This document shows positions 1 to 20,000 of a stretch of DNA of 20,000 nucleotides, one piece after another; position 1 is the stretch's first letter, and every line of letters begins with the position of its first letter. Made by a program: the position numbers and the translations under genes. Source of the stretch: an uncultured virus (IMG/VR IMGVR_UViG_3300042908_001353) (lineage: Duplodnaviria > Heunggongvirae > Uroviricota > Caudoviricetes). The notes below the pieces were generated by a model that was given only the letters and a program-made list of their open reading frames with translations, had not been told where the DNA came from and ran no database searches. The stretch lies in the IMG/VR virus record IMGVR_UViG_3300042908_001353; one strand, written 5' to 3'.

Positions 1-2688
1 TTCTTCTGTCAAATCAAATCCATAATCTAACATTTCTTTTTTTATTTCAGAAATAAGTTGATTTTTAGTCATTCCCCCACGTCTATATAAAATTCCTTCT
101 TCATTTTCAATATCGAAATCTTCGGCACGATTACCCATTTTATAGTCCAAATGGTGATATATGTCGTCTATACTTGCTGATGAAATTGCTAATTTATCTT
201 CTTGCCAAGACATTAATCTTGAACCGCCTTGAATCATTTCAATTAAATCTTTTGAATATTTAGCAATATGCAATAATTGCTTTTTTGGAATTTCGCCACC
301 ATTTTTATATTTTTCCCAACCTTCTAACGAATGTTTTACATCGGCAATACTTTGTTCGATACGAGTTAATTTCATTTTAACCCATTCTTCCAAATTCGTA
401 TCTTCATCAATCATTTTATCAATCTTAATGGCATATTCATATATTTCACCAAGATTAATTAAAGCCATTTTTTTATCATAATCATAAATATCGAAATTGG
501 CTTCTCCACCACTTTTAAAATTACCTTTTTCATAATCTTCATATCCCTGTAATTCATTTACTTCTACACCAATAGGTCGTAAAGCAAAAGGTTCTGCATC
601 TAAACCAAATTCAAAGGTATATCCAACTTCTGCTAATTCGTTTTGTAAATCATTTAGCGTATTGTAATCACTTTCTTCCAATTCATAGTCATTCAAAATG
701 GCTTTAACATTTGCAGGAATATTTTCGTAATCTTCAAATAAATCTACATACGCAAATCCACCATTTTCCATTTTATCATCTTCCTCATCTTCATAACCTT
801 GTAATTCGTTTAAATTAACACCAATAGGTCTTAAACCATAAGGTATATTATCTAAATAACTTTCAAATGTATATCCAACTCCCTGTATTTCTTTGTGCAT
901 CTCAGCCATATCGGAATAATCCATTTCGCCTAAATCATCTCCAAACTTTTGAGCATATTTATCTAAAATAACTTGAACTTTTTGTGGAATATTTTCGTAA
1001 TCTACAAATAAATCCACATACGCAAATCCACCATTTGCATATTTAGGTTCATTTCCCAAAAATACTAATTCCGATATATCAAATTTAGCATATTCATTTC
1101 CTGTTTTATGTTTTATTTTGACTTCGTATGTTTTATTATTGGGCATTATTTTTACTATTTGTCCTTTACTATTAGTGTAATGACTTGGATAGTTTGGCAT
1201 TATTTTGACCATATCTCCAACTTGAAAAATAACATTCCCACCATTATCGTATTTATTTTTCATATATTTTTGTTTGTAATCATCAACCGTTAAAACTTCA
1301 ACAAGGTGTATATCGGAATTATCGTATTCATCAAGCCACATTTCTTTAACATACTTAATTGCATCTTTTTCATTATCAAAACTTGATAAATAACGGAATT
1401 TTAATAAGTTACCACCATCTTTTTCTAATTCTTTCGCCAATACAACAACTTCGATTTCATTATCTACGCTACCACCATTTGCATAACCTAAAATGTCGTC
1501 AAGCGAATAACCTGTATCATCACCAAATTGGGTATTGTAATCTTGATTTTGTAAATCCTTTACAATTTCATTTGCCATTCGTTCCATATATTTTGAACCC
1601 TCTTGACTTTGGCTTAAAATTAAACGTGCAACTCTAAAAAATTCATTAATTTCTAATGCACAAAAACGGGCAAATAAATAGTGTTGTATATGTCGGTTTC
1701 CTTCTTCAAAAACCATAGCAGGATATGAACTTGAAAATAATTCCCAAACAGGAACACCTAATCGTAAATCCATAGTTTCATTTTCTAATGAATCTACGCT
1801 ATCAATAATCATTTGTGAAGATTTCGGGTCATCGGGTAAACCTTGCGTACCAAAAACGTCCATAATGGCTTTTACTAATTCGTGAACTACAACAGGAAAA
1901 TTAATTCCACGCACTTTTAAGGTCGGTGGGTCTGTTTCATCTTCAATTTCTTCTTTACCTGCCATATTTGATGGTTGAGATGCCATTTGTTTGATAGTTT
2001 CATCGGGAAATAACCAATAAATAATATCGTTTGCTGACATCATTTTACCATATTCGTTAGTCATTTGTGGATTAATTTCATTTAATTCACCTGCTACTAA
2101 CTGAAACATATAGTGTCCTTTTTTTGAAGCACCTTGAATAAGCATATTAATAAATCTACGCTTATGTTTTTCCATTTCAAATAATTCGGATGCGGTCATA
2201 TTTTCTACTTCCGCTTGTTCTCCAAATTGGCTTTGAACTTCTTGTTGATTTTGTTCTTTTCCTTCCAAAATAAAACCTTCACCCGATATACTTCCCACAG
2301 GAACTATTTTAGCATCGTATAAAAATGCATCTTCGGGTATTTCCATTTCATTTACAACAACATCAACTGCTAATTTTTCAAGTTTTGGTATGTGTGGTTG
2401 TTCGGCATTTGTGATAGTGCGAACTGCACCCATTAAAACGCTTGATACTTCACCAATACTTGCAGGATTAATTTGTGGATTATATCGTTTCACTAAACTA
2501 ACCACATCGTTAAATCTTTTGTATGCAATTAATTCCAAAAAGTTTATTTGATTACCACTTGCATCAGTTTTAGGAAATGCAGGGTTTTTTGCTAAATCTA
2601 AACTATTTGATTTTATTTGATTTTCTAATTCGGGATTCATTCGTACCCCACTATTCAAATAAATGTTTTTTTGTTCTTCTAAATTCAT
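1..2688 (-). CDS. Large modular protein (>=896 aa, runs off the left edge; absent from the ORF track). N-terminal ~400-aa domain with an HELVK zincin-like motif, then short modules separated by [YFM]xxGG, including a KOW/SH3-like module and two duplicated module types
   Basis: Manual translation from ATG at 2688 (MNLEEQKNIYLNSGVRMNPELENQI...) is open to position 1. It contains KRRFINMLIQGASKKGHYMF, FPVVVHELVKAIMDVF (HELVK 1870-1884) and FQVGDMVKIM...KGQIVKI...YEVKI. It starts 10 nt after the stop of the upstream gene. Confidence 0.9.
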   Translation of the reverse strand, partial: MNLEEQKNIYLNSGVRMNPELENQIKSNSLDLAKNPAFPKTDASGNQINFLELIAYKRFNDVVSLVKRYNPQINPASIGEVSSVLMGAVRTITNAEQPHIPKLEKLAVDVVVNEMEIPEDAFLYDAKIVPVGSISGEGFILEGKEQNQQEVQSQFGEQAEVENMTASELFEMEKHKRRFINMLIQGASKKGHYMFQLVAGELNEINPQMTNEYGKMMSANDIIYWLFPDETIKQMASQPSNMAGKEEIEDETDPPTLKVRGINFPVVVHELVKAIMDVFGTQGLPDDPKSSQMIIDSVDSLENETMDLRLGVPVWELFSSSYPAMVFEEGNRHIQHYLFARFCALEINEFFRVARLILSQSQEGSKYMERMANEIVKDLQNQDYNTQFGDDTGYSLDDILGYANGGSVDNEIEVVVLAKELEKDGGNLLKFRYLSSFDNEKDAIKYVKEMWLDEYDNSDIHLVEVLTVDDYKQKYMKNKYDNGGNVIFQVGDMVKIMPNYPSHYTNSKGQIVKIMPNNKTYEVKIKHKTGNEYAKFDISELVFLGNEPKYANGGFAYVDLFVDYENIPQKVQVILDKYAQKFGDDLGEMDYSDMAEMHKEIQGVGYTFESYLDNIPYGLRPIGVNLNELQGYEDEEDDKMENGGFAYVDLFEDYENIPANVKAILNDYELEESDYNTLNDLQNELAEVGYTFEFGLDAEPFALRPIGVEVNELQGYEDYEKGNFKSGGEANFDIYDYDKKMALINLGEIYEYAIKIDKMIDEDTNLEEWVKMKLTRIEQSIADVKHSLEGWEKYKNGGEIPKKQLLHIAKYSKDLIEMIQGGSRLMSWQEDKLAISSASIDDIYHHLDYKMGNRAEDFDIENEEGILYRRGGMTKNQLISEIKKEMLDYGFDLTEE
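505..1041 (-). repeat. Tandem duplication of an ~85-90 aa module within the 1..2688 CDS
   Basis: NGGFAYVDLFVDYENIP...VGYTFE...LRPIGV..NELQGYED and NGGFAYVDLFEDYENIP...VGYTFE...LRPIGV..NELQGYED. The DNA acatacgcaaatccaccattt recurs with a 270-nt offset. Confidence 0.9.
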
Positions 2689-2698
2689 ACAATAGGTT

Positions 2699-4006
2699 TT
2701 ATTTATTTAAAAATATAAAGTCGTATTTACTTGCCTTTGGTTTTGGTTTAATTTTAGGTCTATAAGGCGTTTTTGGTGTTGTTGGTGTAATTGTCGGTGT
2801 AATTGTTGGTGTTATTGTAGGTTGATTCATTCCAACCCCACCTCCGTTGTCAAATTTTTGCAAGGGTTTTACTGCTATAAATCGAAATGATTTTTTTCTA
2901 TCTTTTGTTGGTGCTGAAATTTTTTGAATAACTGAATATCCGTTAGATTTTAATTCTTTGATTTTTGCTTTGAAATTGTTTATTTTTTCTAAATCTCCTA
3001 CCCAAATAATCTGATATTCGCCAATAATATCATATTTTTTCAAGTGTTGGTATAATCGCCCTGTTCTATCTTGCGGGAAATTTTCCCATATTACTCTTCC
3101 ATTTTGAATTTGCTCTTTATCTGAATTTAACATCAAACCTCTTGTATCTTGTAAATACCTTCGTTCAAGGTCTTGTAGTATTTCGTTCATTTCGGAATCC
3201 GAAATACCACCGCCATTAGTGAATAAATGAGGATAATCTTCTTTGTAAAAAATCATATTATATCTATCCCACATTGAATCTACAAATTGATTAGAGGTTC
3301 TGCCATAAGCAGAATTTACCCTATCCAAAATAACTTCCTTTACTTTTTTCTTGTCTTTATGTATCTCTACTATTTCATCAACAAATTTATAAGCATCTAA
3401 TTGTGTTTGTGTTTTTTCAACCCCACCACCATTTTCATATTGCCTATTTCTTGCACGATGTTTAGGATTTCTTCTTGATGGTTCTATTTCGTAATTTTCA
3501 TCATCATTGTCGTTATAGTGTTCTTTTGTCCAAGCACGACCTGTGGGATAACTTCTATCTTTTTTATTAAAATAATAATAAGCAATTAATCCTGCTACGC
3601 CAAGTCCAACTGCACCTGCAATTAAACCACCAACGGCATATTCTTGAAATTCTTCGGAATTATATTGTCCATTACTCAACAAATAAGTAATAAAATCATA
3701 TTCTTCTGTCGTAATATCCGTACCATCTTCATTTTCAATAAATAAAGCGTAATATTTTTCGATACCTTTTTCAAAGTAATCTCGGTCTTGTTCGGGATAT
3801 GTAGATTCCCAACCACCAAAAGAAATTGGGTAATAAATACCATAAACTTCACTTGCTTTTTTTAGAATATTTCCAATAGTATCGCTTTCATTTTCAATAA
3901 TATAACCACTATCGGAAAAATCGCTTACTTCACGGCTATCTTCGGTTGTTTCTTGAAAAGTAATTGAATACTTAAATAATCTACTTGGACTAATTAAAGG
4001 TTGCAT
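2699..4006 (-). CDS. Hypothetical modular protein (435 aa) with one TM helix, four [YF]xxGG motifs and a Pro/Thr/Lys-rich tail
   Basis: ORF track. YAVGG is followed by hydrophobic LIAGAVGLGVAGLIAYYYF and then NKK. Also YENGG, FTNGG, FDNGG and the tail PTITPTITPTITPTTPKTPYRPKIKPKPKA. Confidence 0.85.
   Translation of the reverse strand: MQPLISPSRLFKYSITFQETTEDSREVSDFSDSGYIIENESDTIGNILKKASEVYGIYYPISFGGWESTYPEQDRDYFEKGIEKYYALFIENEDGTDITTEEYDFITYLLSNGQYNSEEFQEYAVGGLIAGAVGLGVAGLIAYYYFNKKDRSYPTGRAWTKEHYNDNDDENYEIEPSRRNPKHRARNRQYENGGGVEKTQTQLDAYKFVDEIVEIHKDKKKVKEVILDRVNSAYGRTSNQFVDSMWDRYNMIFYKEDYPHLFTNGGGISDSEMNEILQDLERRYLQDTRGLMLNSDKEQIQNGRVIWENFPQDRTGRLYQHLKKYDIIGEYQIIWVGDLEKINNFKAKIKELKSNGYSVIQKISAPTKDRKKSFRFIAVKPLQKFDNGGGVGMNQPTITPTITPTITPTTPKTPYRPKIKPKPKASKYDFIFLNK
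2780..2822 (-). repeat. 12-nt coding tandem repeat (PTIT)x3
   Basis: tgttggtgtaat tgtcggtgtaat tgttggtgttat tgtagg on the + strand. Confidence 0.85.
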
Positions 4007-4010
4007 ATAA

Positions 4011-4430
4011 CTATGATTTTTGTTTAAAATAAACGGCTACACCAACAAGGACTATTAAAACCCCTATTCCGATGTATAAATTTCTTTGCGATGATTTTTT
4101 ATTTTCTTCAATTTGAGCCATCGCCATTCGTTGTTGATTTTGATTTATTGATTTTTTTTCTAAATCATATTGCTCAATAATTGGCTTGGAACAAGCATCA
4201 AATGCTGCTTTTTTCTTTTTTCCACCCCTACGTTTTCCGCATTGTAATTCAACCAATCTCTCGATTTCTGATTGGGATGCTTTTTTTGTGGCACTTGCAG
4301 TAGCAAATTGTCCTGCACCTTGCGTTATTTGACCTGCACCCTGCACTATTGCACCTACATCAACCATATTTGAAAACATTTCATCATCGAAATTTTCAAA
4401 TATTTCCGAATTTTCAAAGTAATTATTCAT
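4011..4430 (-). CDS. Small C-terminally membrane-anchored protein (139 aa)
   Basis: C-terminal LYIGIGVLIVLVGVAVYF followed by KQKS. Acidic N-terminus, QGAGQ duplicated, two Cys flanking a basic patch. Gaps to neighbours are 4-5 nt. Confidence 0.85.
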   Translation of the reverse strand: MNNYFENSEIFENFDDEMFSNMVDVGAIVQGAGQITQGAGQFATASATKKASQSEIERLVELQCGKRRGGKKKKAAFDACSKPIIEQYDLEKKSINQNQQRMAMAQIEENKKSSQRNLYIGIGVLIVLVGVAVYFKQKS

Positions 4431-4435
4431 AGTAT

Positions 4436-5101
4436 TTAATTTTCGTAAAATTCATTAACTGAATAGTTTGAATCGGCTTTTACCATTTCATACTTTTCAA
4501 TCGCTTGTTCTTGTGTTAAACGCACTTCTCGTTCCGTTTTTTTGCCTGTATTTGGCTCAATTAAAGTGTATAAAAAGATTGCATTATCATCAGCATCGTA
4601 AAACATATCATTTGAAACAAAACGATTTCCTTTCGCTATTTCAAAACGAACTACAAGTCCTTTTTTAAGATTATCAATTAAACTACTTTTTTTTGGCTTA
4701 CTTGTTTTACCTGCTTTTTTAGATACTGAATTTGCCCTGCGTTGCTTAAATTCTTCAACTAAATAATCGCAAAATTCTTTGGAATCAATATCATAAATTA
4801 CTCCATCAATTTCAACCTTTTCGCCATCCATTTTTTTTACACTCTTAGCAACTTTTTCAACCGCTTTTGGCTTGGTTGTTTTTGCTACTTTCGGTGCAGT
4901 TTTTTCAACTCTTGGTTTTGGCGTTTTGATTTCAACTTCTACTTCCTGTGGCTCAATAGTTTGTAATTTTGCTTGTAATTTTTCAATACCCTTTTGATAC
5001 AAAGGAATAAACTTTGCATCAGTTTTAGGATTTTTAATTAATTTTTGCAAGTCGGCTATTTTCTTTTTGATTTCGCCACCATCGTTGTATCTACGTTTCA
5101 T
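4436..5101 (-). CDS. Hypothetical basic protein (221 aa) with N-terminal YNDGG, Lys/Pro-rich linkers and a C-terminal domain paralogous to one in the helicase
   Basis: ORF track; A-rich stretch upstream of the ATG; LKKGLVVR...NDMFYDAD...NEFYEN. Confidence 0.85.
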   Translation of the reverse strand: MKRRYNDGGEIKKKIADLQKLIKNPKTDAKFIPLYQKGIEKLQAKLQTIEPQEVEVEIKTPKPRVEKTAPKVAKTTKPKAVEKVAKSVKKMDGEKVEIDGVIYDIDSKEFCDYLVEEFKQRRANSVSKKAGKTSKPKKSSLIDNLKKGLVVRFEIAKGNRFVSNDMFYDADDNAIFLYTLIEPNTGKKTEREVRLTQEQAIEKYEMVKADSNYSVNEFYEN

Positions 5102-5111
5102 TTTTTTGTAA

Positions 5112-8100
5112 TTAAAGTTCTAACAATATTTTTAATCCATTAATGTTTTCAATAATAGATTGACGTTCTTCTTCTTCTTCGGTTATTTCAAGTATTATTT
5201 CTAATCCTGCAATATTTTCAAGAATAAATGCTTTTTCATCATCTTCACCACCAACTTCCGTTATTTCTTCAATATCTTCTTCGGTAGTATCTTTTTCATA
5301 AAATTCATTTGTGATAAATTCTTGCATTGATTCATAAAACGCTATTGCATCCGCTTCCGTAATAACATCTTCCATTTCATCAACTTCATTATTATCAGCA
5401 TCCAAAATCAATGTAAATTTAATATATTCATTGGTGTCGGAATCGTAAAATAAATCGTTTTCATAGAACATACCATCTTTTTCAGTTCGTGTTCTTACAA
5501 TTAAACCTTTTTTCAAGCGACCAATAATTCTTGGCGTTTTAGGTTTTGTGGTTGATTTTTTTACTTGTTTCTTAACAATTTCTTCTTCTATTATTTCGGC
5601 ATCATCAACATTTGGTCTTATATCCAAAAACTGTCTTGGAGAAACAATAGTAGATGCTTCGTCTTGAACGAATGGTCGAAGTTGAGCATCAAGTAAATAA
5701 TTCATTTCAGAAAATTCACTTACTTTTTCTTCCAATGAGATTTGAGTGTAAAGTCGTTCTAATTTTTTTCTTGAATATTTTTCAATCAAACTATCAAATG
5801 AATTTGTTACGTTTTCTTTTTCTGTTGTAAACGCATTTACTTGATTTTTTAGTTCTTCAACTGCCATATCAACATCTTGAATGTCGATACCTAAAATTTC
5901 AAGTGTTTCTTTTATTTTGTTATATTTTTTTACAGCATCTTTATAATCAATCAAAGTTTTTACTACATCTGACTTCCATCTATAATTAACATACCGTGTT
6001 ATATCTTCTTCTTGTGGAATTGACATATTGTACTTACCATTGTCAAATCTTGAAAAATAATCTTCAACAAAATTATATTGAATTTCGTACATATCGTCAT
6101 CGGTCAAACTATTGAATTTTGAATTTGAAGAAAGAACAATATCATTAATTTTATTGATTAAATCTATTTTGTCGCTACTTGTACCTAATTCCGAATATTG
6201 TATTTCTTCAAAAGGTTTTTCATTCGTTAATTCATTTTTTCTATTTCTTTTCTCTGTAATTTTTCTTCCTATTTTTTGTTTTTCCGAATCTACTTTTTCC
6301 TTTAATTGTTCATCTAATAAGTCATTTATTTCTTGGTCAATGTTTTTAATTTTTATGTTATGTTTTTTGTAATCATAATAAGCAGAAATTACAACTAAAA
6401 TGCCCCGTACAATGTTTTCATCTTCCTTCAATATATTTTGGTATTTTTTTGCTTGTCTTAACTCATCAATTCGATTATTTCTCAAATTAATATCGGATGT
6501 TAGTTGTATTGTTTTTTCTTCAATATCAAATCTTGCTAAATCTTCGGGTTCATCTAATATCCTTTTTCTTAATTCTCCTAAATCAAATTCTTTTGTATCT
6601 AATACTGCACCTGTATTGTTTTTATCCCATAAAGTTTTAATTCTCAATGTTTTTTCATACAATTTTTGAAATACGGGTGGGTCAAATGAATTTCGTATCA
6701 TAGGATAAACAATACGAACATTAGCAAATCTGTTGCCCTGTCTATGGATTCTACCTGCAACTTGTTCATTAGTGGTCGGGTTCCAATCAAAATCACATAA
6801 AAACAACGTAGATGAATTATTTTGTAAATCAACCCCTGTTGAAATAGCCGATGAACCTAACATTATTATTGAACGACCTTTCAAAAACCTATTTTTTTCT
6901 TTTTCTCTATTTATTCTATTTGTTTTTCCCGAAACGATTGAAATATCATCGTAGGAATATCCTAAAATGTTTACTAAATAACTTTTTATTTTTTCTAAAC
7001 CTGTTTCACTCCAACTGAAATTAAGTCGTGTATTTTTTACATTAATTCCAATATTCATATAAATTATACAACCCGATAATGGTTTATCGTTGGCTTTTTC
7101 GTAATCGTGTATTGATTTTATACATTGTACGGCATAATTTATTTTAGGTGAAGATTCTACATATTGTTGTGGCGTTGGTTCAAAACCACTTTCTTTTGCA
7201 CAAACTGATAAATACGGACTTAAAGTAATTTGTTTTAGAATATTCAAACCAATTTGAACTCGTAATTTTGATTTATCACTTTCTGTTAAGTCGTTTTCAT
7301 CAACCGTTTCTTGTTTTTTTTCTAATATTTTTTGAACGGCTTTTTTCAATCTAAAAAAATCTTCTTCTTCTTCAAGCGGAAATTCAAGTGAATTAAAATC
7401 TTCTTGTTGTTCTTCTGTACCTCTTTCGTTGATTATTGCTAATAAATCTTCTTCTGAAATTTCATCAATATCAATTACATCTTGATTATCTTGACACAAT
7501 TCTGTGTAATCTATATTACCCCTAATATAATCTTTTACTTTTTTGAATAAAATATCCTGTTCGCTTGTTTCGGGCAAAATACTTCTTTCATCTATTGGAG
7601 AATTAGGCAATAAATATTTTTTAGGTCTTTTGATATTTGCATCTTCACCACTTTTGTAGTTCATTATTGCATAAATCATATTTCGCAAAGCAGGTAAATT
7701 CAGAAACCCTACTAATTGTTCTTTTCTTTCTACACCACTTGGACTAAATACTAAATCATAACTAACATCCATAAAAATATCATAGAAATCAGTCATATTA
7801 TTGAAATCAAATTTTGACAAAAAACCATAATTAGTTAATGCCAACATACCATATATTTCATTTGGCGAGTTGGTAAATGGCGTTGCAGTAAGTTGAATTA
7901 CATTTCTATCATTTGTATCTATATTTATGTATCGGCTTAAAAAATAACCACTTAAAGCAAGATTAGTATATTTTTTATTGCCTACATTGTATCTTCTAAC
8001 ACGGGTTTTATCGCTTTCAACATAGGTTTCATAACCATATCGGTCTTTTGCTTTAATCATTTTATAGTCGCCTAATGTATCCGTGTAGTTATTTTTGATA

Positions 8101-10325: not shown

Positions 10326-10336
10326 AATATTTTTTT

Positions 10337-10549
10337 TTATTCTACATTCGGGGTGCTTAATTCTACTTCAACCAACGCAAGTGCGGTATCTAAATTTGAT
10401 ATTCCACGCACTAATATATGCTGTTTCACTCTAAAAATAATTCTTTCTTTACCTTCGTGTGTCGTTGCAAATTGCGATAAATAAGGCAAATCTTTTACCG
10501 AAGAAATTGATTCTCGGATTAACATATCTAATTGATTTTCGCTATACAT
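10337..10549 (-). CDS. Small hypothetical protein (~70 aa)
   Basis: The ORF track starts at TTG 10558; the in-frame ATG at 10549 (MYSENQLD...) is preferred. It ends 11 nt before the helicase start. Confidence 0.7.
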   Translation of the reverse strand: MYSENQLDMLIRESISSVKDLPYLSQFATTHEGKERIIFRVKQHILVRGISNLDTALALVEVELSTPNVE

Positions 10550-10607
10550 ACTTTTCAAAATTTACTCGTAAATACTAAAAATTGCTTTTTTTAATATAAA
10601 ACAAAGT

Positions 10608-10615
10608 CAAATTTA
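10608..10615 (-). promoter_or_regulatory. Candidate Bacteroidota -7 promoter element TAAATTTG
   Basis: caaattta on + reads TAnnTTTG on -, within the only long intergenic gap of the cluster. No clear -33 TTTG. Confidence 0.4.
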
Positions 10616-10679
10616 CTATAAATACGCTAACGAAAAGAATATATGTAATTTTTTATTATTGCTATGAATTTGTAAATTT

Positions 10680-13600
10680 TTACAATTTTTTAAGTGTACC
10701 ACCATCGGTAATTTTCACACCATTATTATTGTAATTATTTATCAAACTTGCAATTTGCTTCAATGTTCCTTTTACCGAATATTTGTTAGTATCAGCCATT
10801 GTTCTACGATTAATAATTATTGAACCCGAAACAATAACATCATCTACGTCAGTATTTTCGGCTTGTGGTTGTATATTTTCGATGTTTATAGTTGAATTAC
10901 CTTTGTAAACTTTTGCACCTGTATCAAAATTTTTACCGCCACCTAAAACATTAATTGCACTTGCAATTTGTGAAAAAGTTCCTTCTATCGTGTAAATATT
11001 ATTATCATTAAAAGCATTGGCAACAAGAACGGCTTCATCTCTTTCTGCTTCAATTATATGCCCCCCATCACCAACTTCAAATTTTCTACCGCAACCTGTT
11101 TCATCATTACATTCGGAGTGTAATTGCCCTTCAATAATTCCACCTTCTTTGTAAATTTTTTTTGTTCCACTAATACCTACATCACTTGGTCTTAAATCAC
11201 TTGAAATATATCCATACTCATTTGCTTTAATTCCATCTACTTGCATACTTCGGGTTTTCGATACTTTTCCAAAAGGTGATTTTCGTAAAACAACTCTTGC
11301 AGGTAAATAATCACAACCCATATTTAATGCGGTTTGTAATCGGTGATTCCCTTCAATTAACAAAACGCTATTATCTTCGGTTGAATATTCTATAATTAAT
11401 GGCTCTTTAATACCCTCACCTAAAAATGATTTTTCTAAACTTTTAATCGTAAGGTTACTATCATTTGTATTCCATTTTGGTTCTTTATATCGGTCAAATT
11501 GCTTGAATTTTAATAATTGATTTACAGGTACTAATTCGACTTTACTATCCTCACTAAACCAATAATCTTCCATATTCAATGGCACTTCGCCATAGGCACA
11601 AATAATTTTACCACCTTCTTCCTTTTTCGGAACATTGGCTTCACTCAAAGCGATTGCGATTGCCTGTTTAGGATTAGTTACTTTTTCACCATACGATGTT
11701 TTTAATTCGCCTTGCTTGTATTCACGCATCACTTCGGAAATTTTTTCTTTTTGTGCTTCCGTTTGACCGCCTTTACTATAATTTTCTACTCCTTGAATAA
11801 TTTGGTTGTAATCGTCTATATTAAGTTTTTTGTTGGATAAATTGGATATGTTTTCAATTATCTTATGGATTTGTAAATCATTTTTTAATTCTTCGTTTGA
11901 CAGTTCCAATAATCTTGTCAAAAGTGAAATTGAAATTGCTAAATAAATTCCATTTTGATTTTTTAACTCACCCCCTGTTTCAAAATTATTTTCATTTTCA
12001 AAATTTATTAAATCAATTTCATCCGACTTAATTCTTTTCCATTCTGCTTCTAAATCCGTTCTATTCCCAAACTTAATAGTATCTCCACCAATATATTTTA
12101 ATTTACCTAAATTTTTCAATTCGGTTCTATCAAAATAAGCACTACCACCAATACTTTCTAAATTACCTAAATCTTTAAGCGAACTATTAGTAAATACTGC
12201 AAATTGAATAATTTTTTCAAGTTTATTTAGGGATTGTAAAGCACTATTTTTGATAACGCAAATACCACCTATGTAGGTTAAATTACCCAAGTCAATTAAT
12301 TTGGTGTTTTCTTCTAATATAAAACCACCATCAATTCTTTCTAAACTACCTAAACTTGCTATTAAACTTGACTTAAACTCTATTTTACCTTTGATATATT
12401 TCAAATTAGTAAATTCAGATATTCTACTATTCAATAAATTCACATCACCTAAAATACGTTCTATGTTTTGTGTTGTTTTTGTAAAGTTGTTTCCGAAATC
12501 AGCATTTGCACCAATGTATGTCAAATTCGGAAAAGATTTAATTCTACTTCCATTTATACTAAAATTAGTTCCTACACTTTGTAAATTAGGTAATTCAGTT
12601 GATTGACATTTATTAAATAACGCTTGATTTTCTACTTCTATTAAATTTGGAAATGCTACTTCTTTTGACGAATTACAAATAATACTTTTTGCTTTTTTCA
12701 AATTACCTGTACTTTCCAATGCTGAATTTTCTCCAATAATTAAATTACCACATTCTTCTAAATTTCCTAAACTAATAACATTCGTAAATATGCTCACGCA
12801 ATCAATATCTCCACCATAATTGGTTAAATTTCCAAAAGACGTTAAACCTAAATTTGTGCCTTGAAATTTTAATTCTCCACCAATTAATTCGATTGAATCA
12901 AAACTTTGAATTGTTCGGCTACCAATAATTAAATTGCCACCTATTTTTTTTAATTGACCAAAACTTGTTGAATCATTGTTAATAGTTAAATTTCCAAGAA
13001 TTTCGTATAAATTACTATTTCCTAAATCAAAAGCATTTGTATCATTTAACATTAAATCCCCTAAATAATATCGTGTATTAGGTGTTAAATTAGATAGGTT
13101 ATCTGCAAATTCTTCGGCTTGAAAAAATTGATTTGGTAAATTACTAATTGCCGTATTTACAGTTTGAAAAAAATTAATGTTTGTTGGATTTTCACTATAT
13201 TTTCCTTTACCAACGCCATCTTTATTTTTAACTACATAAAGATAATCTTCCATTATTGTTGGGTACATACCCTCATCTTCTAACCTTTTAATAGAATCTC
13301 CAACTTTTATATTGTAATTTAATTTATCAATATATTCTTCGGCACTATTATTTCCTATATTCAAACGACAAAATCTTTTGGCAATTTCAGAGTAATAAGG
13401 TGATATATTTTGACCTTCTAATGTGCCACTTATTTCACCAACTAAATCGTGGTTCATTCTAATAGCAATCTCGGGTTGCAAACCATTTTCAGTTTTTTCT
13501 GCAAAAACGTAAAAATTACCGCCTTGTCCTTGATAAATTCCTGTACCTACTAATTGGTCTAACGCATAACTTGTAGTACACCATTTAGTATTTTGAACAA

Positions 13601-16600
13601 AAGCCGTTAATTTTTCCGCATTTTCTTTAATTTCTAAATCGTTTGCATTTCCTTTACCTAAAAATGTAAACCACGTTCCACCATCTGCTTGAATTGTAAC
13701 TACCTCATTTACTAAATTTTGTCCTTCTTCGGCTAATATTTCTATATAATCTTTTAATAACTCATTACTTTTACTTGTAAATAGTTTTGCCAATGCACTT
13801 GCACTAAAACTTGTAATATTTGTTGTGGTTATTTTTGTTCTACTAAGTAGTTGTTGTTTATTTAGATTGTAATTAAATTTTAATATTGCAGAAAACATCA
13901 AGTAAATAAATTCATTTGGATATAAATTATCTTTGAAATAATAAATCCAAGATTCCAAAGTGTATTTTTGACTTTCAGCAAGTTGATTTACTTTTTCTAA
14001 TCTTTTTTGTTGATTTTGTTGATTTTCTTTGATTTGGTCAATAACGGAAGTAGGTTCTTGGTTGATTTGTGCTTGTCGTATATCTGCAAGAAAAAAAGCA
14101 TCTATTCCTTTACTATCTTCGGAAATAACATAATCCGTGTAAGTAGCATAAAGTTTTTCTACTTCATTTTTTAATTTTTCTTCAAGCGAATCACTATCGA
14201 AATTTACACCTTGTATTCCCATAGTGATAAATGCTTCGATTTTGTATTTATCGGTAACACCGATACGAGCATATTTTTGTTGTTCTTGGTGAACAAAACC
14301 TTGTGGGGTGGTATTCCCTTGAATTTTACCACCTTTTCCGAATTTATTTTCCATATTTTTATTTGTGTTTTCCATATTTTTATTTTTTTCTAAATTTCCC
14401 CCACCATTGAAACGAATGTCGGAATTGTAATTATCAAAAGTGGTATTTCTTCCATCCCCTAACTTTATTTGTTCGGGATAATACACAACAATTTCTTCGC
14501 AACTATCAACTCCATTTTCAAAACTCATATTTTCAATCCAATTAGGATAAACTACAACACCATCGTAACCTTGATTTTTTAATTCATCTGAATTTAATTG
14601 ATAATTTCTGTATGAACTTTTGTTAAAATAAGGATTTTTGATATTTAAAAAACAATTTAATTCAATTTCTCCATATCTTGATTGACCAACATTAGGTGTG
14701 AAATAAAATCCTTTACCATAATAACCTGCATCTGTATTTTTACCTATTTCATATTCATCAAATTCGTAAAATTCTTTTGGTGTATTATGAACACAAATTA
14801 ATGGTTCTCCGTTTTCATCAATTATTTTAGAAACACCTTCGTAATCTTTTGTTTTGTACGCTTCTTCCCAATCACCAAACCAATTCTTAAATTCTTTGGT
14901 TCTTACAAGATTATATATTTCAGTAAAGTATAATCCACTCGGCTTTCCGTTTGGTGCAATTAAACCACCACCTGCATATCGAATATCGGGGTTATTCCCA
15001 TCGAAAGTAGTGTTCGTGCCATCGGCTAACTTAATTTGATTAGAATTAAATACTGCTATATTATCGTTATTTCCTTCATAACTTTCATAACCATCATAAT
15101 CGTTATTTTTAATCCATTCAATTATTGGATTCATTTCTAAAATAAAATAGTTAATACCATTCTTTAACTGATATAACAAAATATCAAGTGGATTTGAATT
15201 TTCATTCAACCCTGCTTCAATTAAATAGTAATTATCTAAAAAATCATATAAATCATTGAATCCATTTTGTTTTACTTGTTCCATTAAAATTTTATCGGAA
15301 TCTTTTTGTAGTATTTTTCTGATTTCTTTTTCTTCTTTTTCAGTTGTTTTATTTGGTAAAAAAGGATTTCTACAATTTATGAAATATGTTCTTAATTTAT
15401 CGCCAAAACTTTCTGCAAAACCTAAATCGCCAAAATAATATACTCCGTGTCCACCATAGTTAATGTAATCAAATACATTTTTAGGGTTATTATCACCTCT
15501 CCATTTTACTTTTGGCTCACCATTCTCATCAATTACTTTACTTGCGTTTGCAGGGTCGTTTTCCCAATCACCGAACCACGCTTTAAATTCGGGTGTACGA
15601 ACCAATTTATATTGTTCGGGTGTTAAGTTGCTTGGCTTTCCGTTTGGTGCTATTAATCCACCTTTTGCATATCGAATGTCGGGATTTCCTGCATCGAATG
15701 TAGTGTTAGTTCCATCTGCGAGTTTTATTTGATTGGGTTCAAATGCAACATACAAACTACCTCTTGGCGTTTTAATTATTATGCCATTATTACAATTTTC
15801 CTTTGCTCTTTGAAAATAACTTGTAGAATTTAGGTCGAAATTATCAGTAGCGTGATAGTAGTCCACTTCATATCCGTATTCATCTTCAAATACATTTAAT
15901 AAAGGTTTTTCTATTTTCAAAAATACTTCTTTAACTTTTCCTCTAAACGCTTTATTTTTTTTATCTGTAAAAAAGAACCCACCACCATACAAATCACTCT
16001 TACTTTGCCAATGATTTAATCCTATTTTAGATTTATCAAATGTATTAAAATCATTATCTGTTCCGTGATAAACAGGTAATGGCTCTCCGTTAGAATCAAC
16101 AACCTTACTCGCAGTTTCGGGTGAGTTTTCCCAATCACCGAACCACGCTTTAAATTCGGGTGTCCGAACTAATTTGTATTGTTCGGGCGTTAGGTTGCTT
16201 GGCTTTCCATTTGGTGCAATTAAACCACCATCAGCGTATTTATTTTCCGTATCTTTTGTAAGTTCTTTTGAATTATATTTCAAAATTTCATAGTTGTTTT
16301 GACCATCAATAGATTGAAAACCTGCGTTTTTATAAAATTTAATAAGTTGGTCTTTGTCCAAATATTGCTCAACATCAATAAGTGGCGAAGGTTGTACTTG
16401 TATTTCGATACCAAATTTATCTGCTAATTCGGTAAGTAGTTTAATTGCTTTTGTTCCGTGTCCTTTACCTTTTTCTTTAACAATCAAAGAATCAAGTATT
16501 ATTACAGGTAATTTATCGTATTTTAATATTATTTTTTTTACTAATCCATTATCTAATACCAATCTTGCTGATTGCGAAAATCCAAATGAAATATTTTTAT

Positions 16601-17393
16601 CGGGAGATTTATAAACTACACCTGTTGCGTAATAATCAAGACCAATATTTTCAATTTCTTTTTCGTTCAATTCTTGCCAACCATTTTCTTCAAACCAATC
16701 AAAAAAATTACCCATTTTTTTTTCTGATTCTTCTCTCATTATTTTTCCCCCACCATTAAATCGAATGTCGGGGTTATTCTCATCGAATGTAGTATTCGTT
16801 CCATCGGCAAGTTTTATTTGATTAGATTCAAATGCGACAATTATTCTTTTTTTATCTTTTTCTCTAATAAATTCTATACCATTAAAATCTCTTTCTCTTG
16901 CTTTATCTATGTATAAATTTTCAAAATATGGTGTACTCCAATTCTCATCTGATACTTCTCCTACCCAACTTGAAGGGTACATTTTTTTTATATTCAAGAA
17001 ATATGATTTTGATATTTCATATTTAGATTCATTAACATCTTGTATTATTTGTTCTACACTTAAACCTTGTTGCATTAAGTTTTTAATCCAATTCGGATAT
17101 TCACCTTTATTAAGTAATTCTAAAACGCTTATTTTAGAAAATTCATCATCTTTTTTGTTTTCAGTAAAAAAAAAGCCGTGTGATACTCCTTTAAGTTCAA
17201 ATATATTAAATTCTGAATCAGAAAAATGATAAACAACGAGAGGTTCTCCGTTAGAATCAATTACTTTACTTGCGGTTTCGGGAGAATTTTCCCAATCACC
17301 GAACCAATCCTTAAATGCCTTTGTACGAACTAATTTGTATTGTTCGGGTGTCAAGTTACTTGGCTTACCATTTGGTGCTAATAATTTATTCAT
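10680..17393 (-). CDS. Giant polyvalent protein (~2237 aa): ART-GNAT-ART-ART-ART-WCT domain-LRR-helical module-DUF6496-like-ParB-like-C-terminal domain
   Basis: ATG 17393 (MNKLLAPNGK) is preferred over TTG 17426. Four VRT.EFK.WFGDWE...GEP..YH...GF[FY]FT...F..NQIK units resemble ART-PolyVal. GNAT: KGKGHGT...LIKFYKNAGF. LRR: LGNLxxIGG units. DUF6496-like: VMREYKQGELK...PKQAIAIALSEA. ParB-like: EPLII...LIEGNHRL. Confidence 0.9.
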   Translation of the reverse strand: MNKLLAPNGKPSNLTPEQYKLVRTKAFKDWFGDWENSPETASKVIDSNGEPLVVYHFSDSEFNIFELKGVSHGFFFTENKKDDEFSKISVLELLNKGEYPNWIKNLMQQGLSVEQIIQDVNESKYEISKSYFLNIKKMYPSSWVGEVSDENWSTPYFENLYIDKARERDFNGIEFIREKDKKRIIVAFESNQIKLADGTNTTFDENNPDIRFNGGGKIMREESEKKMGNFFDWFEENGWQELNEKEIENIGLDYYATGVVYKSPDKNISFGFSQSARLVLDNGLVKKIILKYDKLPVIILDSLIVKEKGKGHGTKAIKLLTELADKFGIEIQVQPSPLIDVEQYLDKDQLIKFYKNAGFQSIDGQNNYEILKYNSKELTKDTENKYADGGLIAPNGKPSNLTPEQYKLVRTPEFKAWFGDWENSPETASKVVDSNGEPLPVYHGTDNDFNTFDKSKIGLNHWQSKSDLYGGGFFFTDKKNKAFRGKVKEVFLKIEKPLLNVFEDEYGYEVDYYHATDNFDLNSTSYFQRAKENCNNGIIIKTPRGSLYVAFEPNQIKLADGTNTTFDAGNPDIRYAKGGLIAPNGKPSNLTPEQYKLVRTPEFKAWFGDWENDPANASKVIDENGEPKVKWRGDNNPKNVFDYINYGGHGVYYFGDLGFAESFGDKLRTYFINCRNPFLPNKTTEKEEKEIRKILQKDSDKILMEQVKQNGFNDLYDFLDNYYLIEAGLNENSNPLDILLYQLKNGINYFILEMNPIIEWIKNNDYDGYESYEGNNDNIAVFNSNQIKLADGTNTTFDGNNPDIRYAGGGLIAPNGKPSGLYFTEIYNLVRTKEFKNWFGDWEEAYKTKDYEGVSKIIDENGEPLICVHNTPKEFYEFDEYEIGKNTDAGYYGKGFYFTPNVGQSRYGEIELNCFLNIKNPYFNKSSYRNYQLNSDELKNQGYDGVVVYPNWIENMSFENGVDSCEEIVVYYPEQIKLGDGRNTTFDNYNSDIRFNGGGNLEKNKNMENTNKNMENKFGKGGKIQGNTTPQGFVHQEQQKYARIGVTDKYKIEAFITMGIQGVNFDSDSLEEKLKNEVEKLYATYTDYVISEDSKGIDAFFLADIRQAQINQEPTSVIDQIKENQQNQQKRLEKVNQLAESQKYTLESWIYYFKDNLYPNEFIYLMFSAILKFNYNLNKQQLLSRTKITTTNITSFSASALAKLFTSKSNELLKDYIEILAEEGQNLVNEVVTIQADGGTWFTFLGKGNANDLEIKENAEKLTAFVQNTKWCTTSYALDQLVGTGIYQGQGGNFYVFAEKTENGLQPEIAIRMNHDLVGEISGTLEGQNISPYYSEIAKRFCRLNIGNNSAEEYIDKLNYNIKVGDSIKRLEDEGMYPTIMEDYLYVVKNKDGVGKGKYSENPTNINFFQTVNTAISNLPNQFFQAEEFADNLSNLTPNTRYYLGDLMLNDTNAFDLGNSNLYEILGNLTINNDSTSFGQLKKIGGNLIIGSRTIQSFDSIELIGGELKFQGTNLGLTSFGNLTNYGGDIDCVSIFTNVISLGNLEECGNLIIGENSALESTGNLKKAKSIICNSSKEVAFPNLIEVENQALFNKCQSTELPNLQSVGTNFSINGSRIKSFPNLTYIGANADFGNNFTKTTQNIERILGDVNLLNSRISEFTNLKYIKGKIEFKSSLIASLGSLERIDGGFILEENTKLIDLGNLTYIGGICVIKNSALQSLNKLEKIIQFAVFTNSSLKDLGNLESIGGSAYFDRTELKNLGKLKYIGGDTIKFGNRTDLEAEWKRIKSDEIDLINFENENNFETGGELKNQNGIYLAISISLLTRLLELSNEELKNDLQIHKIIENISNLSNKKLNIDDYNQIIQGVENYSKGGQTEAQKEKISEVMREYKQGELKTSYGEKVTNPKQAIAIALSEANVPKKEEGGKIICAYGEVPLNMEDYWFSEDSKVELVPVNQLLKFKQFDRYKEPKWNTNDSNLTIKSLEKSFLGEGIKEPLIIEYSTEDNSVLLIEGNHRLQTALNMGCDYLPARVVLRKSPFGKVSKTRSMQVDGIKANEYGYISSDLRPSDVGISGTKKIYKEGGIIEGQLHSECNDETGCGRKFEVGDGGHIIEAERDEAVLVANAFNDNNIYTIEGTFSQIASAINVLGGGKNFDTGAKVYKGNSTINIENIQPQAENTDVDDVIVSGSIIINRRTMADTNKYSVKGTLKQIASLINNYNNNGVKITDGGTLKKL
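11154..11609 (-). other. ParB/Srx-like N-terminal domain module
   Basis: SLEKSFLGEGIKEPLII...LLIEGNHRLQTALNMG...LPARV; bounded by KEEGG and YKEGG. Confidence 0.8.
11625..11765 (-). other. DUF6496-like module
   Basis: KISEVMREYKQGELKTSYGEKVTNPKQAIAIALSEA matches my recollection of the DUF6496 pattern; bounded by YSKGG and KEEGG. Confidence 0.7.
12060..13100 (-). repeat. ~22-aa leucine-rich repeat region
   Basis: Repeats such as SLGSLERIDGGF, DLGNLTYIGGIC, DLGNLESIGGSA, NLGKLKYIGGD, SFPNLTYIGANA. Confidence 0.85.
14397..17393 (-). repeat. Four ART-like cassettes with conserved ends and divergent cores: 16746-17393, 15657-16223, 14964-15656, 14397-14963
   Basis: Each begins L[IL]APNGKPS and ends QIKL[AG]DG.NTTFD..N[PS]DIR[YF]xxGG. 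A 39-nt exact match lies at 16125-16163 and 15558-15596. Confidence 0.92.
16239..16745 (-). other. GNAT acetyltransferase module within the polyvalent protein
   Basis: IILDSLIVKEKGKGHGTKAIKLLTELADK (motif A) and LIKFYKNAGF (motif B); bounded by FNGGG and YADGG. Confidence 0.8.
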
Positions 17394-17404
17394 TAAAAAA
17401 ATAA

Positions 17405-17423
17405 TTATATTTGTCAAAGATAA
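17405..17423. promoter_or_regulatory. Overlapping bidirectional Bacteroidota-type -7 elements
   Basis: TATATTTG on + (17406-17413) and TATCTTTG on - (17422-17415) form the imperfect palindrome ttatatttg-t-caaagataa in the 53-nt gap between divergent genes. Confidence 0.65.
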
Positions 17424-17446
17424 CAAGTTAAATTAAAAATTTTATT

Positions 17447-18315: not shown

Positions 18316-18669
18316 TTACAGGACTTTATGGAAATCATTATTTTCGGAATTAATTGCATATCCATTTATAAACAACATATTTTTAATCATTTCAATATAG
18401 GAGAAAAAACATACCCTTTCGTCTTTTGTAAATTCAGCATCGTTAGGTATATGACCGAAAATTAAATCGAAATTATTTTTCTCTGCATATTCTTGAATCA
18501 TATTGAGTAATGCTTTTCCGTTACCCCTGTTGCGTTTTTTAATATCAACTGATAAATGCTTTAAGAAAATAGGTTTAGATGCTTTTAAGCCATATTCTTG
18601 TGCGTGTTCGGAAGTGGTTTCATAAAATTTAATCTCTAATCCTTCGTGTTCTAATTCTACTGATTTCAT
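18316..18669 (-). CDS. Stand-alone GNAT-family acetyltransferase (117 aa)
   Basis: IFLKHLSVDIKKRNRGNGKALLNMIQEYAEK is an acetyl-CoA binding motif A (RxxGxG). Confidence 0.8.
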   Translation of the reverse strand: MKSVELEHEGLEIKFYETTSEHAQEYGLKASKPIFLKHLSVDIKKRNRGNGKALLNMIQEYAEKNNFDLIFGHIPNDAEFTKDERVCFFSYIEMIKNMLFINGYAINSENNDFHKVL

Positions 18670-18995
18670 TAGTTAAAAATTGTTTCTTGTTGGTATTCCC
18701 ACATTTTATATTCTTCGGCAAAACTATCTTTTAATACTACCATAAAAATATCTTCTTGAAATTCTACATTTTCAAATAATTTTTCCTTGTTTAGTTTACA
18801 AGTAATTTCATTTAATACATCGTTATATTCGTCTATGTAGGTTGGCGTAAAAAATGGCAAATGGCTTTTGTGATTTATTTTACTTTGAAATTCGGAAAAT
18901 ATTATTGATAATAACAAATTGAAACGCACTAAATAGTCGTATTCACTATTAGAACTTAACACAAAATAGCATAAATCTTCTAAATCACTCTGCAT
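18669..18995 (-). CDS. Hypothetical protein (~108-120 aa; start uncertain)
   Basis: ORF track gives 19031; ATG 18995 (MQSD) or 19007 reduces the overlap with the upstream gene. Its stop overlaps the GNAT start (TAATG coupling). Confidence 0.7.
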   Translation of the reverse strand: MQSDLEDLCYFVLSSNSEYDYLVRFNLLLSIIFSEFQSKINHKSHLPFFTPTYIDEYNDVLNEITCKLNKEKLFENVEFQEDIFMVVLKDSFAEEYKMWEYQQETIFN

Positions 18996-20000
18996 TTTCG
19001 GATTCATAATCAACGCTATAAATATTATCAATTATTTCAACATTTTGCTCATTTATTGAAAAATTTTCAATTATGCTTTTATACGCATTATTGCCCATAC
19101 GCTTTAACTCGGATTTATTTTCCAAGAAAAAACGTATTTTATCAATCATATCGTCTTTTTTATTTATTACAATTCCATTATCTCCATCACGCATTATTGC
19201 ATTGTATGGAAAAGCATCAATTACCATTAAGGGTATTTGAAATAAACCTGCTTCTAAATACTTATTGTAGTTTTCCGATGTTTCATTAAATGTGGTTTTT
19301 TTCAATGGAACAAAAAGTATATCAAGTTGTAGGTTTCTTAATTGTTTATAGTAGTGAATTATTGTGCAAGGTTTTATTTGCTCGAACTTAAATCCATCGG
19401 GAAAACAATTTTTCTTTGTAAAGTGGTCTATGCCATCAAATCCTATTAAAAAGAATTTTACTTTATCGCCAAATTCGGTTTGTATTTTGTTAAATGTTTC
19501 TTTGTAAGATGCTAAATCATCCCAAGTGTAATTAGTGGCAACAATACCTATTCGCATAGTTTTTTGTTCTTCTATACTTAATTCCTGTTGGTCTAATTCG
19601 ATATTTTCTAAAATTATTTCTTCATCTACAAGGAGTGGTAAAGTACCTACTGAAACATAACTTTCTTGACCTTTGAATTTATTTTCGGATAAATCTTTTA
19701 ATTTTTCTAATAATACTTCCGTTAATTTATTATTCGTAACAAAAGTCAAATCCGAATTAAATATATTTTTTTCAATATTTTCTATTGCATTTCTTTCCTT
19801 AAACTCTTTTTGTAGGGGGTGGTTTTTTGGCAGTTCATAGTAATTGAAATCAACATTAAATACAATGTTAATATCGGGGTTTATTTTTCGTATGCTTTCA
19901 TAACTTTCGGTTAGGTCATCGAAAATAAATGGAAACACAATATAGTCCGCCCAAAGTATTTGAACTGAATGTAAAGGTATTTTTATTGGTTCATATTCCT
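18985..20000 (-). CDS. GT-B fold glycosyltransferase (GT4/Glycos_transf_1-like), 5' end outside the window
   Basis: LDILFVPL..TTFN...NYNKYLEAG...IP...PY...DGDNG...LKRMGNNAY. The frame stays open upstream of GTG 19938 to the edge (EYEPIKIPLHSVQILWADYIV). Confidence 0.85.
   Translation of the reverse strand, partial: EYEPIKIPLHSVQILWADYIVFPFIFDDLTESYESIRKINPDINIVFNVDFNYYELPKNHPLQKEFKERNAIENIEKNIFNSDLTFVTNNKLTEVLLEKLKDLSENKFKGQESYVSVGTLPLLVDEEIILENIELDQQELSIEEQKTMRIGIVATNYTWDDLASYKETFNKIQTEFGDKVKFFLIGFDGIDHFTKKNCFPDGFKFEQIKPCTIIHYYKQLRNLQLDILFVPLKKTTFNETSENYNKYLEAGLFQIPLMVIDAFPYNAIMRDGDNGIVINKKDDMIDKIRFFLENKSELKRMGNNAYKSIIENFSINEQNVEIIDNIYSVDYESENAE

Follow-up and report, generated by a model that had tools for sequence, protein, structure and literature searches.

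What is the function of a short peptide that recurs, copy after copy, through otherwise dissimilar proteins encoded side by side in a phage genome? The question is posed by IMG/VR record IMGVR_UViG_3300042908_001353, an uncultured member of the Caudoviricetes, of which we analysed a stretch of 20,000 nucleotides (the window). The window is poor in G+C (27–32% per 1-kb step, with a mean of ~29%); its minus strand carries seven genes, designated A–G, to the right of which lie four unrelated genes (H–K). Megablast matched the window to no deposited phage, and no IMG/VR contig agrees with it exactly. An initial annotation, made from the DNA sequence alone, had drawn attention to the peptide [YFM]xxGG in five of the proteins and proposed that it punctuates strings of cargo domains that are either cut apart after Gly-Gly or docked into the capsid. 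We find that the peptide is a genuine delimiter of protein modules and marks the places where related phages swap entire modules; that it is also a site of proteolytic processing is a reading that we favour tentatively.

All 22 copies reported in the initial annotation lie in the coding frame where it had placed them (Table 1), as do two variants in gene G; to these we add MIQGG (223–237), which falls within a conserved helical module. The reported excess also stands. When each protein is shuffled separately, [YF]xxGG occurs 21 times in the 5,749 residues of A–G against 2.67 ± 1.64 expected, and 0 of 300 shuffles reach 21. Copies are in part non-independent – the four ART repeats of gene G share ...NPDIR[YF]xxGG by duplication and two modules of gene A are duplicated – and setting aside the 3 of 21 that are duplicates within the ART repeats leaves ~18. 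Patterns with shifted composition or spacing are weakly raised ([YF]xGG, 6 versus 2.5; [YF]xxxGG, 6 versus 2.5; [ILV]xxGG, 6 versus 5.2), and the Gly-Gly dipeptide alone is found 53 times versus 25.7 expected. Among 44 Gly-Gly runs, Tyr or Phe stands at position –3 in 18 (4.4 expected), and Ile follows two residues past the run in 14 (3.6 expected). The coding strand holds all 21 copies, the three frames of the plus strand giving 0, 1 and 0. Density in the window amounts to 3.65 copies per 1,000 residues, as compared with 0.16–0.45 in three sets of related loci that lack the system, and the annotated absence of the motif to the right is borne out, genes H–K being without any Gly-Gly at all.

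That the motif delimits modules in several proteins, as had been proposed, is supported by the domains that lie between copies and by the breakpoints that coincide with them. In protein G the best ART-PolyVal stretch (residues 444–577) ends 9 residues ahead of the copy at 586, and DUF6496 (1893–1931) is flanked by copies at 1883 and 1935. An AlphaFold model of protein A, poor overall (mean predicted local distance difference test score, pLDDT, 40), contains confident modules only at 412–475, 563–621 and 649–706, each between copies, and the motif falls in the low-confidence gaps; the modules so delimited differ in predicted secondary structure. Across 119 homologues, 85 of 128 breakpoints of ungapped high-scoring segment pairs lie no more than 10 residues from a copy, as compared with 41.9 ± 5.3 when positions are drawn at random (0 of 2,000 draws). 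The modules are small, with a median spacing of 77 residues (n = 788; 120 homologues).

Near relatives allow the breakpoints to be placed exactly. Gene B of the window and of metagenome contigs L022 and L023 is near-identical through RNRQYENGGGV, at which point the three continue into unrelated sets of cassettes; near-identity returns from [FY]xNGGGV[GE]MNQPTITP. Gene A shows like breaks at EPKYA[ND]GG, [FY]xxGGEANFDIY and Y[RA][RG]GG, so that 5 of 5 cassette breakpoints are at the motif. Nucleotide identity ends right past GGT GGT GGG GTT and returns inside GGT GGG GTT G, which places all five examined breakpoints inside the motif itself. The motif is, we conclude with high confidence, the seam of whole-module exchange among related phages.

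A seam of this kind might be maintained at the level of DNA or of protein. The codons of the motif are mixed in the manner of the background (TAT, TAC, TTT and TTC; GGT, GGA, GGC and GGG), and where a single helical module can be followed through 18 diverged copies, its flanking and internal motifs hold Tyr or Phe and Gly-Gly while the two x positions vary. This combination indicates selection on the protein and not on the DNA, and leaves us highly confident that the delimiter is real, conserved and selected as a peptide. A DNA recombination signal is insufficient as the sole cause, given the mixed codons and the retained interchange of Tyr and Phe, and is still seen as a contributor. We also reject the notion that the motif is a piece of one repeated domain: the intervening modules differ in secondary structure, have differing Pfam matches or none, and can occur both with and without it. 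Modules of the FAYVDLF type and of the type found in protein D likewise exist free of the motif, which thus does not belong to the folds of the modules.

The phenomenon extends well beyond the window. A search with the variable part of protein A retrieved 253 proteins, and the best 120 of these 253, to which our counts for 120 homologues refer, contain 908 copies where 61.5 would be expected. The consensus, drawn from 287 non-redundant contexts, reads K(36%)-[Y 73%/F 27%]-A(54%)-[N/K/D]-G-G-G(46%)-[V 53%/I 18%]. Near relatives are similarly enriched (observed versus expected: L020, 10 versus 1.3; L021, 13 versus 1.0; L023, 15 versus 2.7; L024, 9 versus 0.4). Two of these, the near-identical metagenome contigs L020 and L021, extend the window leftward by ~3.3 kb only, and L021 reveals just left of the window a sixth motif-bearing gene of more than 1,097 residues, with FIRGG, YGNGG, FDNGG and MAKGG. 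When IMG/VR was searched with a degenerate DNA pattern for KYANGGGV, 16 stretches matched; five of those 16 records, together with record G001, were read whole for further motif-rich proteins. Two proteins of G001 (74 kb) carry 7 copies each and two of G002 (170 kb; 1,656 and 1,939 residues) 13 each. G003 (88 kb, 100% complete according to CheckV, and read as N4- or crAss-like from its gene content) has 8 copies in a 1,164-residue protein beside giant ORFs (open reading frames), G004 has motif-bearing proteins with 3 and 5 copies, and the tape-measure protein of G005 (PhageMin_Tail) contains 8. P0322, a 1,523-residue protein found with D, has over a dozen copies that read STYA[EG]GGE[IL].

Enrichment is not universal. 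Relatives that share only the N-terminal domain of A are not enriched (0.16–0.19 per 1,000 residues versus 3.65 in the window), nor is the 3,633-residue polyvalent protein of Bacteroides phage BF1-TP2, which has the same ART domain (2 versus 1.5); the junction peptide is thus lineage-specific. No relative of the helical module was found in 185,579 species genomes of bacteria and archaea, and no published description of the peptide in the literature searched, the main text of Iyer et al. included. The motif peptide also turns up in an unrelated context, as a C-terminal tail: small proteins ending in ...GGx[VI]xKKYANGGGVRK plus 3–6 residues are encoded on eight IMG/VR fragments (L071, L073, L075, L078, L080, L081, L084 and L085), and in G006 (~1060–1830), the only case read in context, a gene with a KKYANGGGVRK tail lies between those for the small and large terminase subunits.

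Within the family, too, the motif is not confined to joints. It lies in the first 30 residues of 25 of the 120 homologues and in the last 30 of 4; among 31 shorter, likely complete homologues it is near the N-terminus in 9 and near the C-terminus in 4. The copy at residues 5–9 of D is kept in the L023 orthologue (MKRKYNNGGEI) and in a 38% identical homologue, P0314, that begins MYNKKRYDGGGEI, while six other D-like proteins begin straight at the module without a motif; in P0322 the D-type module is internal and preceded by SYKGGGAV. Other chains end a few residues past a copy (G, ...ITDGGTLKKL; P0274, ...YAKGGYMS). Leaderless homologues begin where a cut would leave them. Protein G offers a parallel, in that its N-terminus, MNKLLAPNGKPS, aligns with the sequence that follows Gly-Gly in its internal repeats (GG-LIAPNGKPS). 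As listed, G starts at a TTG and has a hydrophobic head of 11 residues (17394–17426); its true start looks like the ATG 11 codons further on, since the resulting MNKLLAPNGKPS corresponds to the opening of every internal ART repeat. Retention of the motif at chain ends fits a trimmed site or a bound handle, whereas a plain hinge would have no reason to persist there.

What manner of protein carries the motif? Iyer et al. described giant, multi-domain polyvalent proteins of phages and proposed their packaging into the head, followed by injection (PMC5512222). Theirs combine ART-PolyVal, SNF2-type helicase and ParB-like domains with many small domains of no known family (PMC5512222), as do those of the window, in which the ParB-like match is weak. 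Several unrelated domains in one chain, a polyvalent trait, are found here in G (four ART-PolyVal stretches plus DUF6496) and in E (Helicase_C and SNF2-rel_dom), and a zincin-like metallopeptidase, a frequent and non-obligatory trait, was not found in the window. Neither 'linker' nor 'glycine' appears as a word in the main text of Iyer et al. (PMC5512222), which describes no junction peptide. A second point of comparison is cargo protein C1 (gp45) of crAss001, which resembles the product of gene B in being particle-internal with a membrane helix (PMC10172136). Enrichment of the motif in gp45 is weak (three copies versus 1.08 expected); no sequence similarity between gp45 and the window proteins was found, the search matching two huge uncultured phages only. 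The copies at 260 and 559 of gp45 (L108) stand just past the segments resolved in the virion, 214–245 (tail) and 425–552 (portal) (PMC10172136). Genes A, B, D, E, G and the next one leftward encode polyvalent or cargo proteins, which this low-GC phage, itself uncultured, probably carries in its particle and injects.

The reading that we favour, if tentatively, is that the peptide marks a processing site. Each protein is a string of small, independently folding modules, every one headed by K-[YF]-A-[NKD]-G-G-[G]-[VI]; a host or phage metallopeptidase would cut at or just upstream of Gly-Gly, trimming short N-terminal leaders and C-terminal tails and freeing the modules before or after injection. 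We infer such a cut from the conservation of the motif, from the chain ends and from precedents in P22 and T5. Loading of cargo into the head followed by trimming is familiar from T4, whose internal proteins bear a capsid-targeting sequence that is cut by the prohead protease gp21, and from comparable head proteins of phiKZ and SPN3US: in each, one protease cuts at a short consensus and short N-terminal leaders are lost. The consensus in these phages has Glu as its last residue ([LI]xE or [SAG]xE), whereas the window motif ends in Gly-Gly. In T5, pb2 is cut after R1127, which frees its muralytic C-terminal domain (PMC10038345); the sequence there reads ...FVPR/AEGGMMYPG, the slash marking the cut, and contains the only A-x-G-G in 1,219 residues. 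From gp7 of P22, host oligopeptidase A (OpdA) removes 20 residues to leave a new start at Lys-Gly-Gly-Lys-Gly, and deletion of the leader has little effect (PMC8402733); the site is SYPE/KGGKGG. Both cuts lie one or two residues before Gly-Gly and not after it, and in the accounts given in these sources neither involves a cysteine protease.

The parallels are several. P22 gp7 is particle-internal and ejected, as the window proteins probably are, and it has a short leader with an aromatic residue shortly before Gly-Gly; the dispensability of that leader recalls the leaderless homologues described above. The cut in T5 pb2 parts a functional domain from an ejected protein at the N-terminal edge of an A-x-G-G-x-hydrophobic stretch, and processing of polyvalent proteins by a zincin-like metallopeptidase was predicted by Iyer et al. 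(PMC5512222). It is possible, though we hold it to be doubtful, that these are glimpses of a general junction code, (hydrophobic/basic)-Ala-x-Gly-Gly-x-(Val/Ile), read by an OpdA-type host oligopeptidase or a phage zincin: giant chains would then be cut into dozens of small effectors, the same peptide would serve as the in-frame seam for cassettes, and P22 gp7 and T5 pb2 would be isolated cases of one rule.

Processing calls attention to the peptidase. As the initial annotation had conceded, none can be named in the window, scans of its 11 ORFs against Pfam and PHROGs having returned no protease. One candidate comes from G001 and G002, in which a protein of ~280 residues with an invariant H-E-x-x-H and a downstream Glu is encoded among motif-rich genes and paralogues of gene C. 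The family has 423 homologues and no match in Pfam or PHROGs. Its modelled structure (pLDDT 91.2) comprises an N-terminal beta-sandwich and a helical domain, and the best structural matches of the latter are to M48 peptidases (BepA, Z 8.0, root-mean-square deviation 3.5, 117 residues aligned; ZMPSTE24, Z 6.5), with further matches to a putative Zn peptidase (Z 6.4), Ste24p (6.0) and abylysin (5.9); the model thereby resembles an M48-like metallopeptidase, albeit on Z values of at most 8.0, such as are common in models without a clear match. A Foldseek search with the model returned nothing at E ≤ 0.001. Seven of the longest-contig entries in the lists of HExxH-family and of motif-rich homologues are of equal size, one of them only 3,416 bases; the two kinds of gene are therefore often neighbours in that lineage. 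A prediction of the complex between the M48-like protein and a 42-residue joint segment from G002 scored 0.00, which speaks neither for nor against the pairing.

A SprT-like zincin is encoded between motif-bearing genes of G004 (30.3 bits; cut-off 25.6). RadC/JAB domains occur within G001 and in 5 of the 120 homologues, embedded in some of the motif-rich proteins; as a general Gly-Gly peptidase RadC/JAB is unsupported, being absent from G002–G005 and from the window. The gp21-type protease family phrog_207 was seen only in a motif-free relative, L001. No cysteine protease was found in the scanned parts of G001–G004. A C39 peptidase or ABC transporter had no match in the window, and the double-glycine leader model does not describe the motif, most copies of which are internal. 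Spontaneous cleavage at Asn-Gly was rejected, Asn preceding Gly-Gly in only 25% of contexts and Lys in 20%.

The low Z values and the null Foldseek result tell against a metallopeptidase cut, and they do not stand alone. HExxH is absent from every ORF of the window and from the next gene on L021; among the motif-rich records the M48-like family was seen in G001 and G002 only; and no peptidase is common to all of these records, RadC/JAB being present in one of five. In G003, no head protease family was detected in the 59 of 82 ORFs scanned. The precedents are imperfect: P22 gp7 has its Tyr three residues before Gly-Gly instead of two, Glu in the place of the aromatic residue, and a single site that is not repeated at module joints, while T5 pb2 has Arg in the aromatic place and likewise one site only. 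OpdA is moreover a host oligopeptidase, and the internal joints of folded giant proteins may be beyond its reach. One invariant copy of the motif looks structural, being placed within a helical unit of two parts that have remained joined in 105 of 119 homologues. Some proteins have the same modules and no motif at all (P0261, P0298 and P0299), and 6 of 10 D-like proteins lack it, so the motif is dispensable. Nucleotide breakpoints fall in a shared stretch, GGTGGGGTTG, and the uniformity of the motif could in part be a product of recombination itself. Finally, a cut in this protein family is something that we infer, and the crAss001 study describes gp45 with no mention of cleavage, the strings 'cleav' and 'proteoly' occurring 0 times (PMC10172136).

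These reservations lend interest to explanations that dispense with cutting. The peptide might be a standard connector that doubles as a recombination seam: a flexible Gly-Gly hinge held between hydrophobic anchors, by virtue of which modules would unfold and refold singly in the tail with no need of a trans-acting recogniser. Recombination inside its coding sequence, as modules change hands, would keep it uniform. The coincidence of 5 of 5 cassette swaps with the motif, both flanks of each cassette sharing GGT GGG GTT G, accords with this view, as do the small modules (median 77 residues, n = 788), the low-confidence stretches that hold the motif between folded modules of A, the invariant copy inside the helical unit and the proposal of Bayfield et al. 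that cargo proteins partially unfold on ejection (PMC10172136). We nonetheless think it somewhat unlikely, in that mixed synonymous codons together with a fixed Tyr/Phe and Gly-Gly beside variable x positions speak for selection on the peptide, that a copy lying at the very N-terminus (25 of 120; 9 of 31) or ahead of a short C-terminal tail has nothing to hinge, and that ordinary linkers do not stay so constant among unrelated folds and in several types of phage. The peptide might instead be a handle, bound by the inner face of the capsid, the portal or a scaffold so as to recruit a module or a whole chain into the procapsid. Loading handles are known in the T4 capsid-targeting sequence and the cargo-loading peptides of encapsulins. 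The motif can be N-terminal, internal, or C-terminal before a short basic tail, and it is present in several particle-internal proteins (the tape-measure protein of G005 and the 1,164-residue protein of G003), both as a handle might be; in crAss001 gp45 the copy FAYGG (559) stands just after the portal-bound domain 425–552 (PMC10172136). Yet a handle has no known partner here, many homologues of the same modules do without the motif, as do relatives that have the head-associated N-terminal domain of A, and up to 13 copies in a protein exceed what a loading tag requires. We judge a handle unlikely.

The initial annotation had leaned on adenain, African swine fever virus (ASFV) pS273R and Ulp1, that is, on a phage cysteine protease of clan CE that would cut right after Gly-Gly. 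The likeness to adenain and pS273R is genuine in one respect: there too Gly-Gly within a short consensus punctuates virion precursors. The invariance of Gly-Gly, the small residue that often follows (G in 46%) and the polyprotein-like strings over five or six genes would all suit such an enzyme. Adenain and pS273R belong to eukaryotic viruses, however, and differ in the spacing of the hydrophobic residue: the adenain consensus has it at P4, whereas a cut after Gly-Gly would put the conserved hydrophobic residue of the motif at P5. No such protease was found in the 20-kb window (Pfam and PHROGs), no C5, C48, C57 or other cysteine protease being found in its 11 ORFs or in the scanned parts of G001–G004, and the mapped cuts in T5 and P22 precede Gly-Gly. 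The analogy is therefore unsupported and a clan CE system very improbable; of the original proposal, the polyvalent, cargo-type strings hold up – for the five genes and for the sixth to the left – and cutting after Gly-Gly by a clan CE enzyme does not.

The genes themselves repay a closer look. Family alignment divides A into a conserved N-terminal domain (residues 1–401), a middle of variable modules with the motif between them, and, outside the window, a C-terminal domain that is again conserved. The N-terminal domain is 100% identical in L020 and L021, 99% in L022 and 74% in L023; ESM Atlas gave no usable match for it. On L001 a relative of this domain forms a stand-alone protein of 410 residues, whose gene immediately precedes those for the large terminase, the portal, the head protease and the major head protein. 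On L023 (7350–8524), the 74% relative, a long low-complexity stretch rich in Gly, Ala and Ser, with GGGGG runs, follows the variable region of A and replaces the modules of the window. Gene B has a conserved head with a predicted membrane helix right after the first motif copy, then exchangeable cassettes and a Pro/Thr-rich tail; the C-terminus (2699–2830) consists of a Pro/Thr repeat (TITPTITPTITPTTPKTP), whose number varies among relatives, and a basic tail. Gene C has zero copies of the motif and one KRRGG. It is 41% and 39% identical to two proteins of G001 (E 4e-14 and 8e-14), and paralogues of its family flank motif-rich genes in G001 and G002. Its members are small, with an acidic N-terminus that is conserved and a membrane anchor at the C-terminus (G001, 66247–72322, on L069; G002, 168053–169009, on L096); at least five of them stand in a row around the motif-rich genes of G001 with the common tail DKFLGMPKA.GITVA.VGGLAL; they may be ejection or membrane-channel proteins. 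Residues 133–220 of D (4436–4702) are a 40% identical copy of residues 1592–1677 of E (5295–5552; E 6e-12). Besides its Pfam matches, E has a DarB-like match in PHROGs.

Protein G matches ART-PolyVal (PF18760) in four stretches at 161.4 bits, and beyond these and DUF6496 it contains a PcfJ-like and LRR-like block, a weak ParB_N match and a C-terminal module of no known family. The domain names first given to it can be kept in part: Pfam upholds ART and DUF6496, and the LRR-like part matches Recep_L_domain at 26.2 bits, while ParB_N (E 0.023) is under the cut-off, KOW/SH3 is weak (E 0.06–0.36) and GNAT (residues 228–396) lacks Pfam support. For the block annotated as 'WCT', ESM Atlas gave a weak lead to PcfJ only, and a sequence search of the PDB gave nothing below E 0.3. 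The last module of G has no sequence similarity to the C-terminal domain pb2C of T5. No capsid, portal or terminase gene was found by the Pfam and PHROGs scans of the 11 ORFs of the window, and a match of its proteins to MuF_C is below threshold (E 0.014). To the right, I is GNAT-like and K a group-1 glycosyltransferase; neither these nor J carries the motif, and J (18669–19031) and K (18985–19938) share 47 bases (18985–19031) on the same strand.

Table 1. Genes A–G and motif copies of the window, and the HExxH proteins of two motif-rich records
Feature	Position	Strand	Remark
Gene A	1–2688	-	3' end beyond window edge; full protein 1,203 residues (from L021)
Gene B	2699–4006	-	435 residues
Gene C	4011–4430	-	139 residues; small, C-terminal membrane anchor
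Gene D	4436–5101	-	221 residues
Gene E	5112–10325	-	1,737 residues; SNF2/Helicase_C polyvalent helicase
Gene F	10337–10558	-	
Gene G	10680–17426	-	2,248 residues counted from TTG
Motif copies, gene A	1471–1485; 1237–1251; 1027–1041; 757–771	-	YANGG; YDNGG; YANGG; MENGG
Motif copies, gene A (continued)	505–519; 295–309; 73–87	-	FKSGG; YKNGG; YRRGG
Motif copies, gene B	3626–3640; 3425–3439; 3209–3223; 2840–2854	-	YAVGG; YENGG; FTNGG; FDNGG
Motif copy, gene D	5075–5089	-	YNDGG, residues 5–9 (MKRRYNDGGEI)
Motif copy, gene E	10182–10196	-	FTEGG, after a head of 43 residues
Motif copies, gene G	16746–16760; 16224–16238; 15657–15671; 14964–14978; 14397–14411	-	
Motif copies, gene G (continued)	14328–14342; 11970–11984; 11766–11780; 11139–11153	-	
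Motif variants, gene G	11610–11624; 10698–10712	-	KEEGG; ITDGG
HExxH protein, G002	166303–167172 (L096: 6303–7172)	-	
HExxH protein, G001	65412–66242 (L069: 5412–6242)	-	

Few phage proteins are as large, or as poorly understood, as the polyvalent proteins, and although their processing has been predicted since 2017, the main text in which the prediction was made never named a site (PMC5512222). The junction peptide supplies exact places at which to look for new termini in virions, and exact residues to mutate. It also furnishes a rule by which giant ORFs can be split into modules for annotation and structure prediction, and at its seams the exchange of effector cassettes between related phages can be followed to nucleotide resolution. 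If the peptide is indeed cut, then the many small modules would be separate injected effectors and, as such, a rich source of candidate anti-defence proteins.

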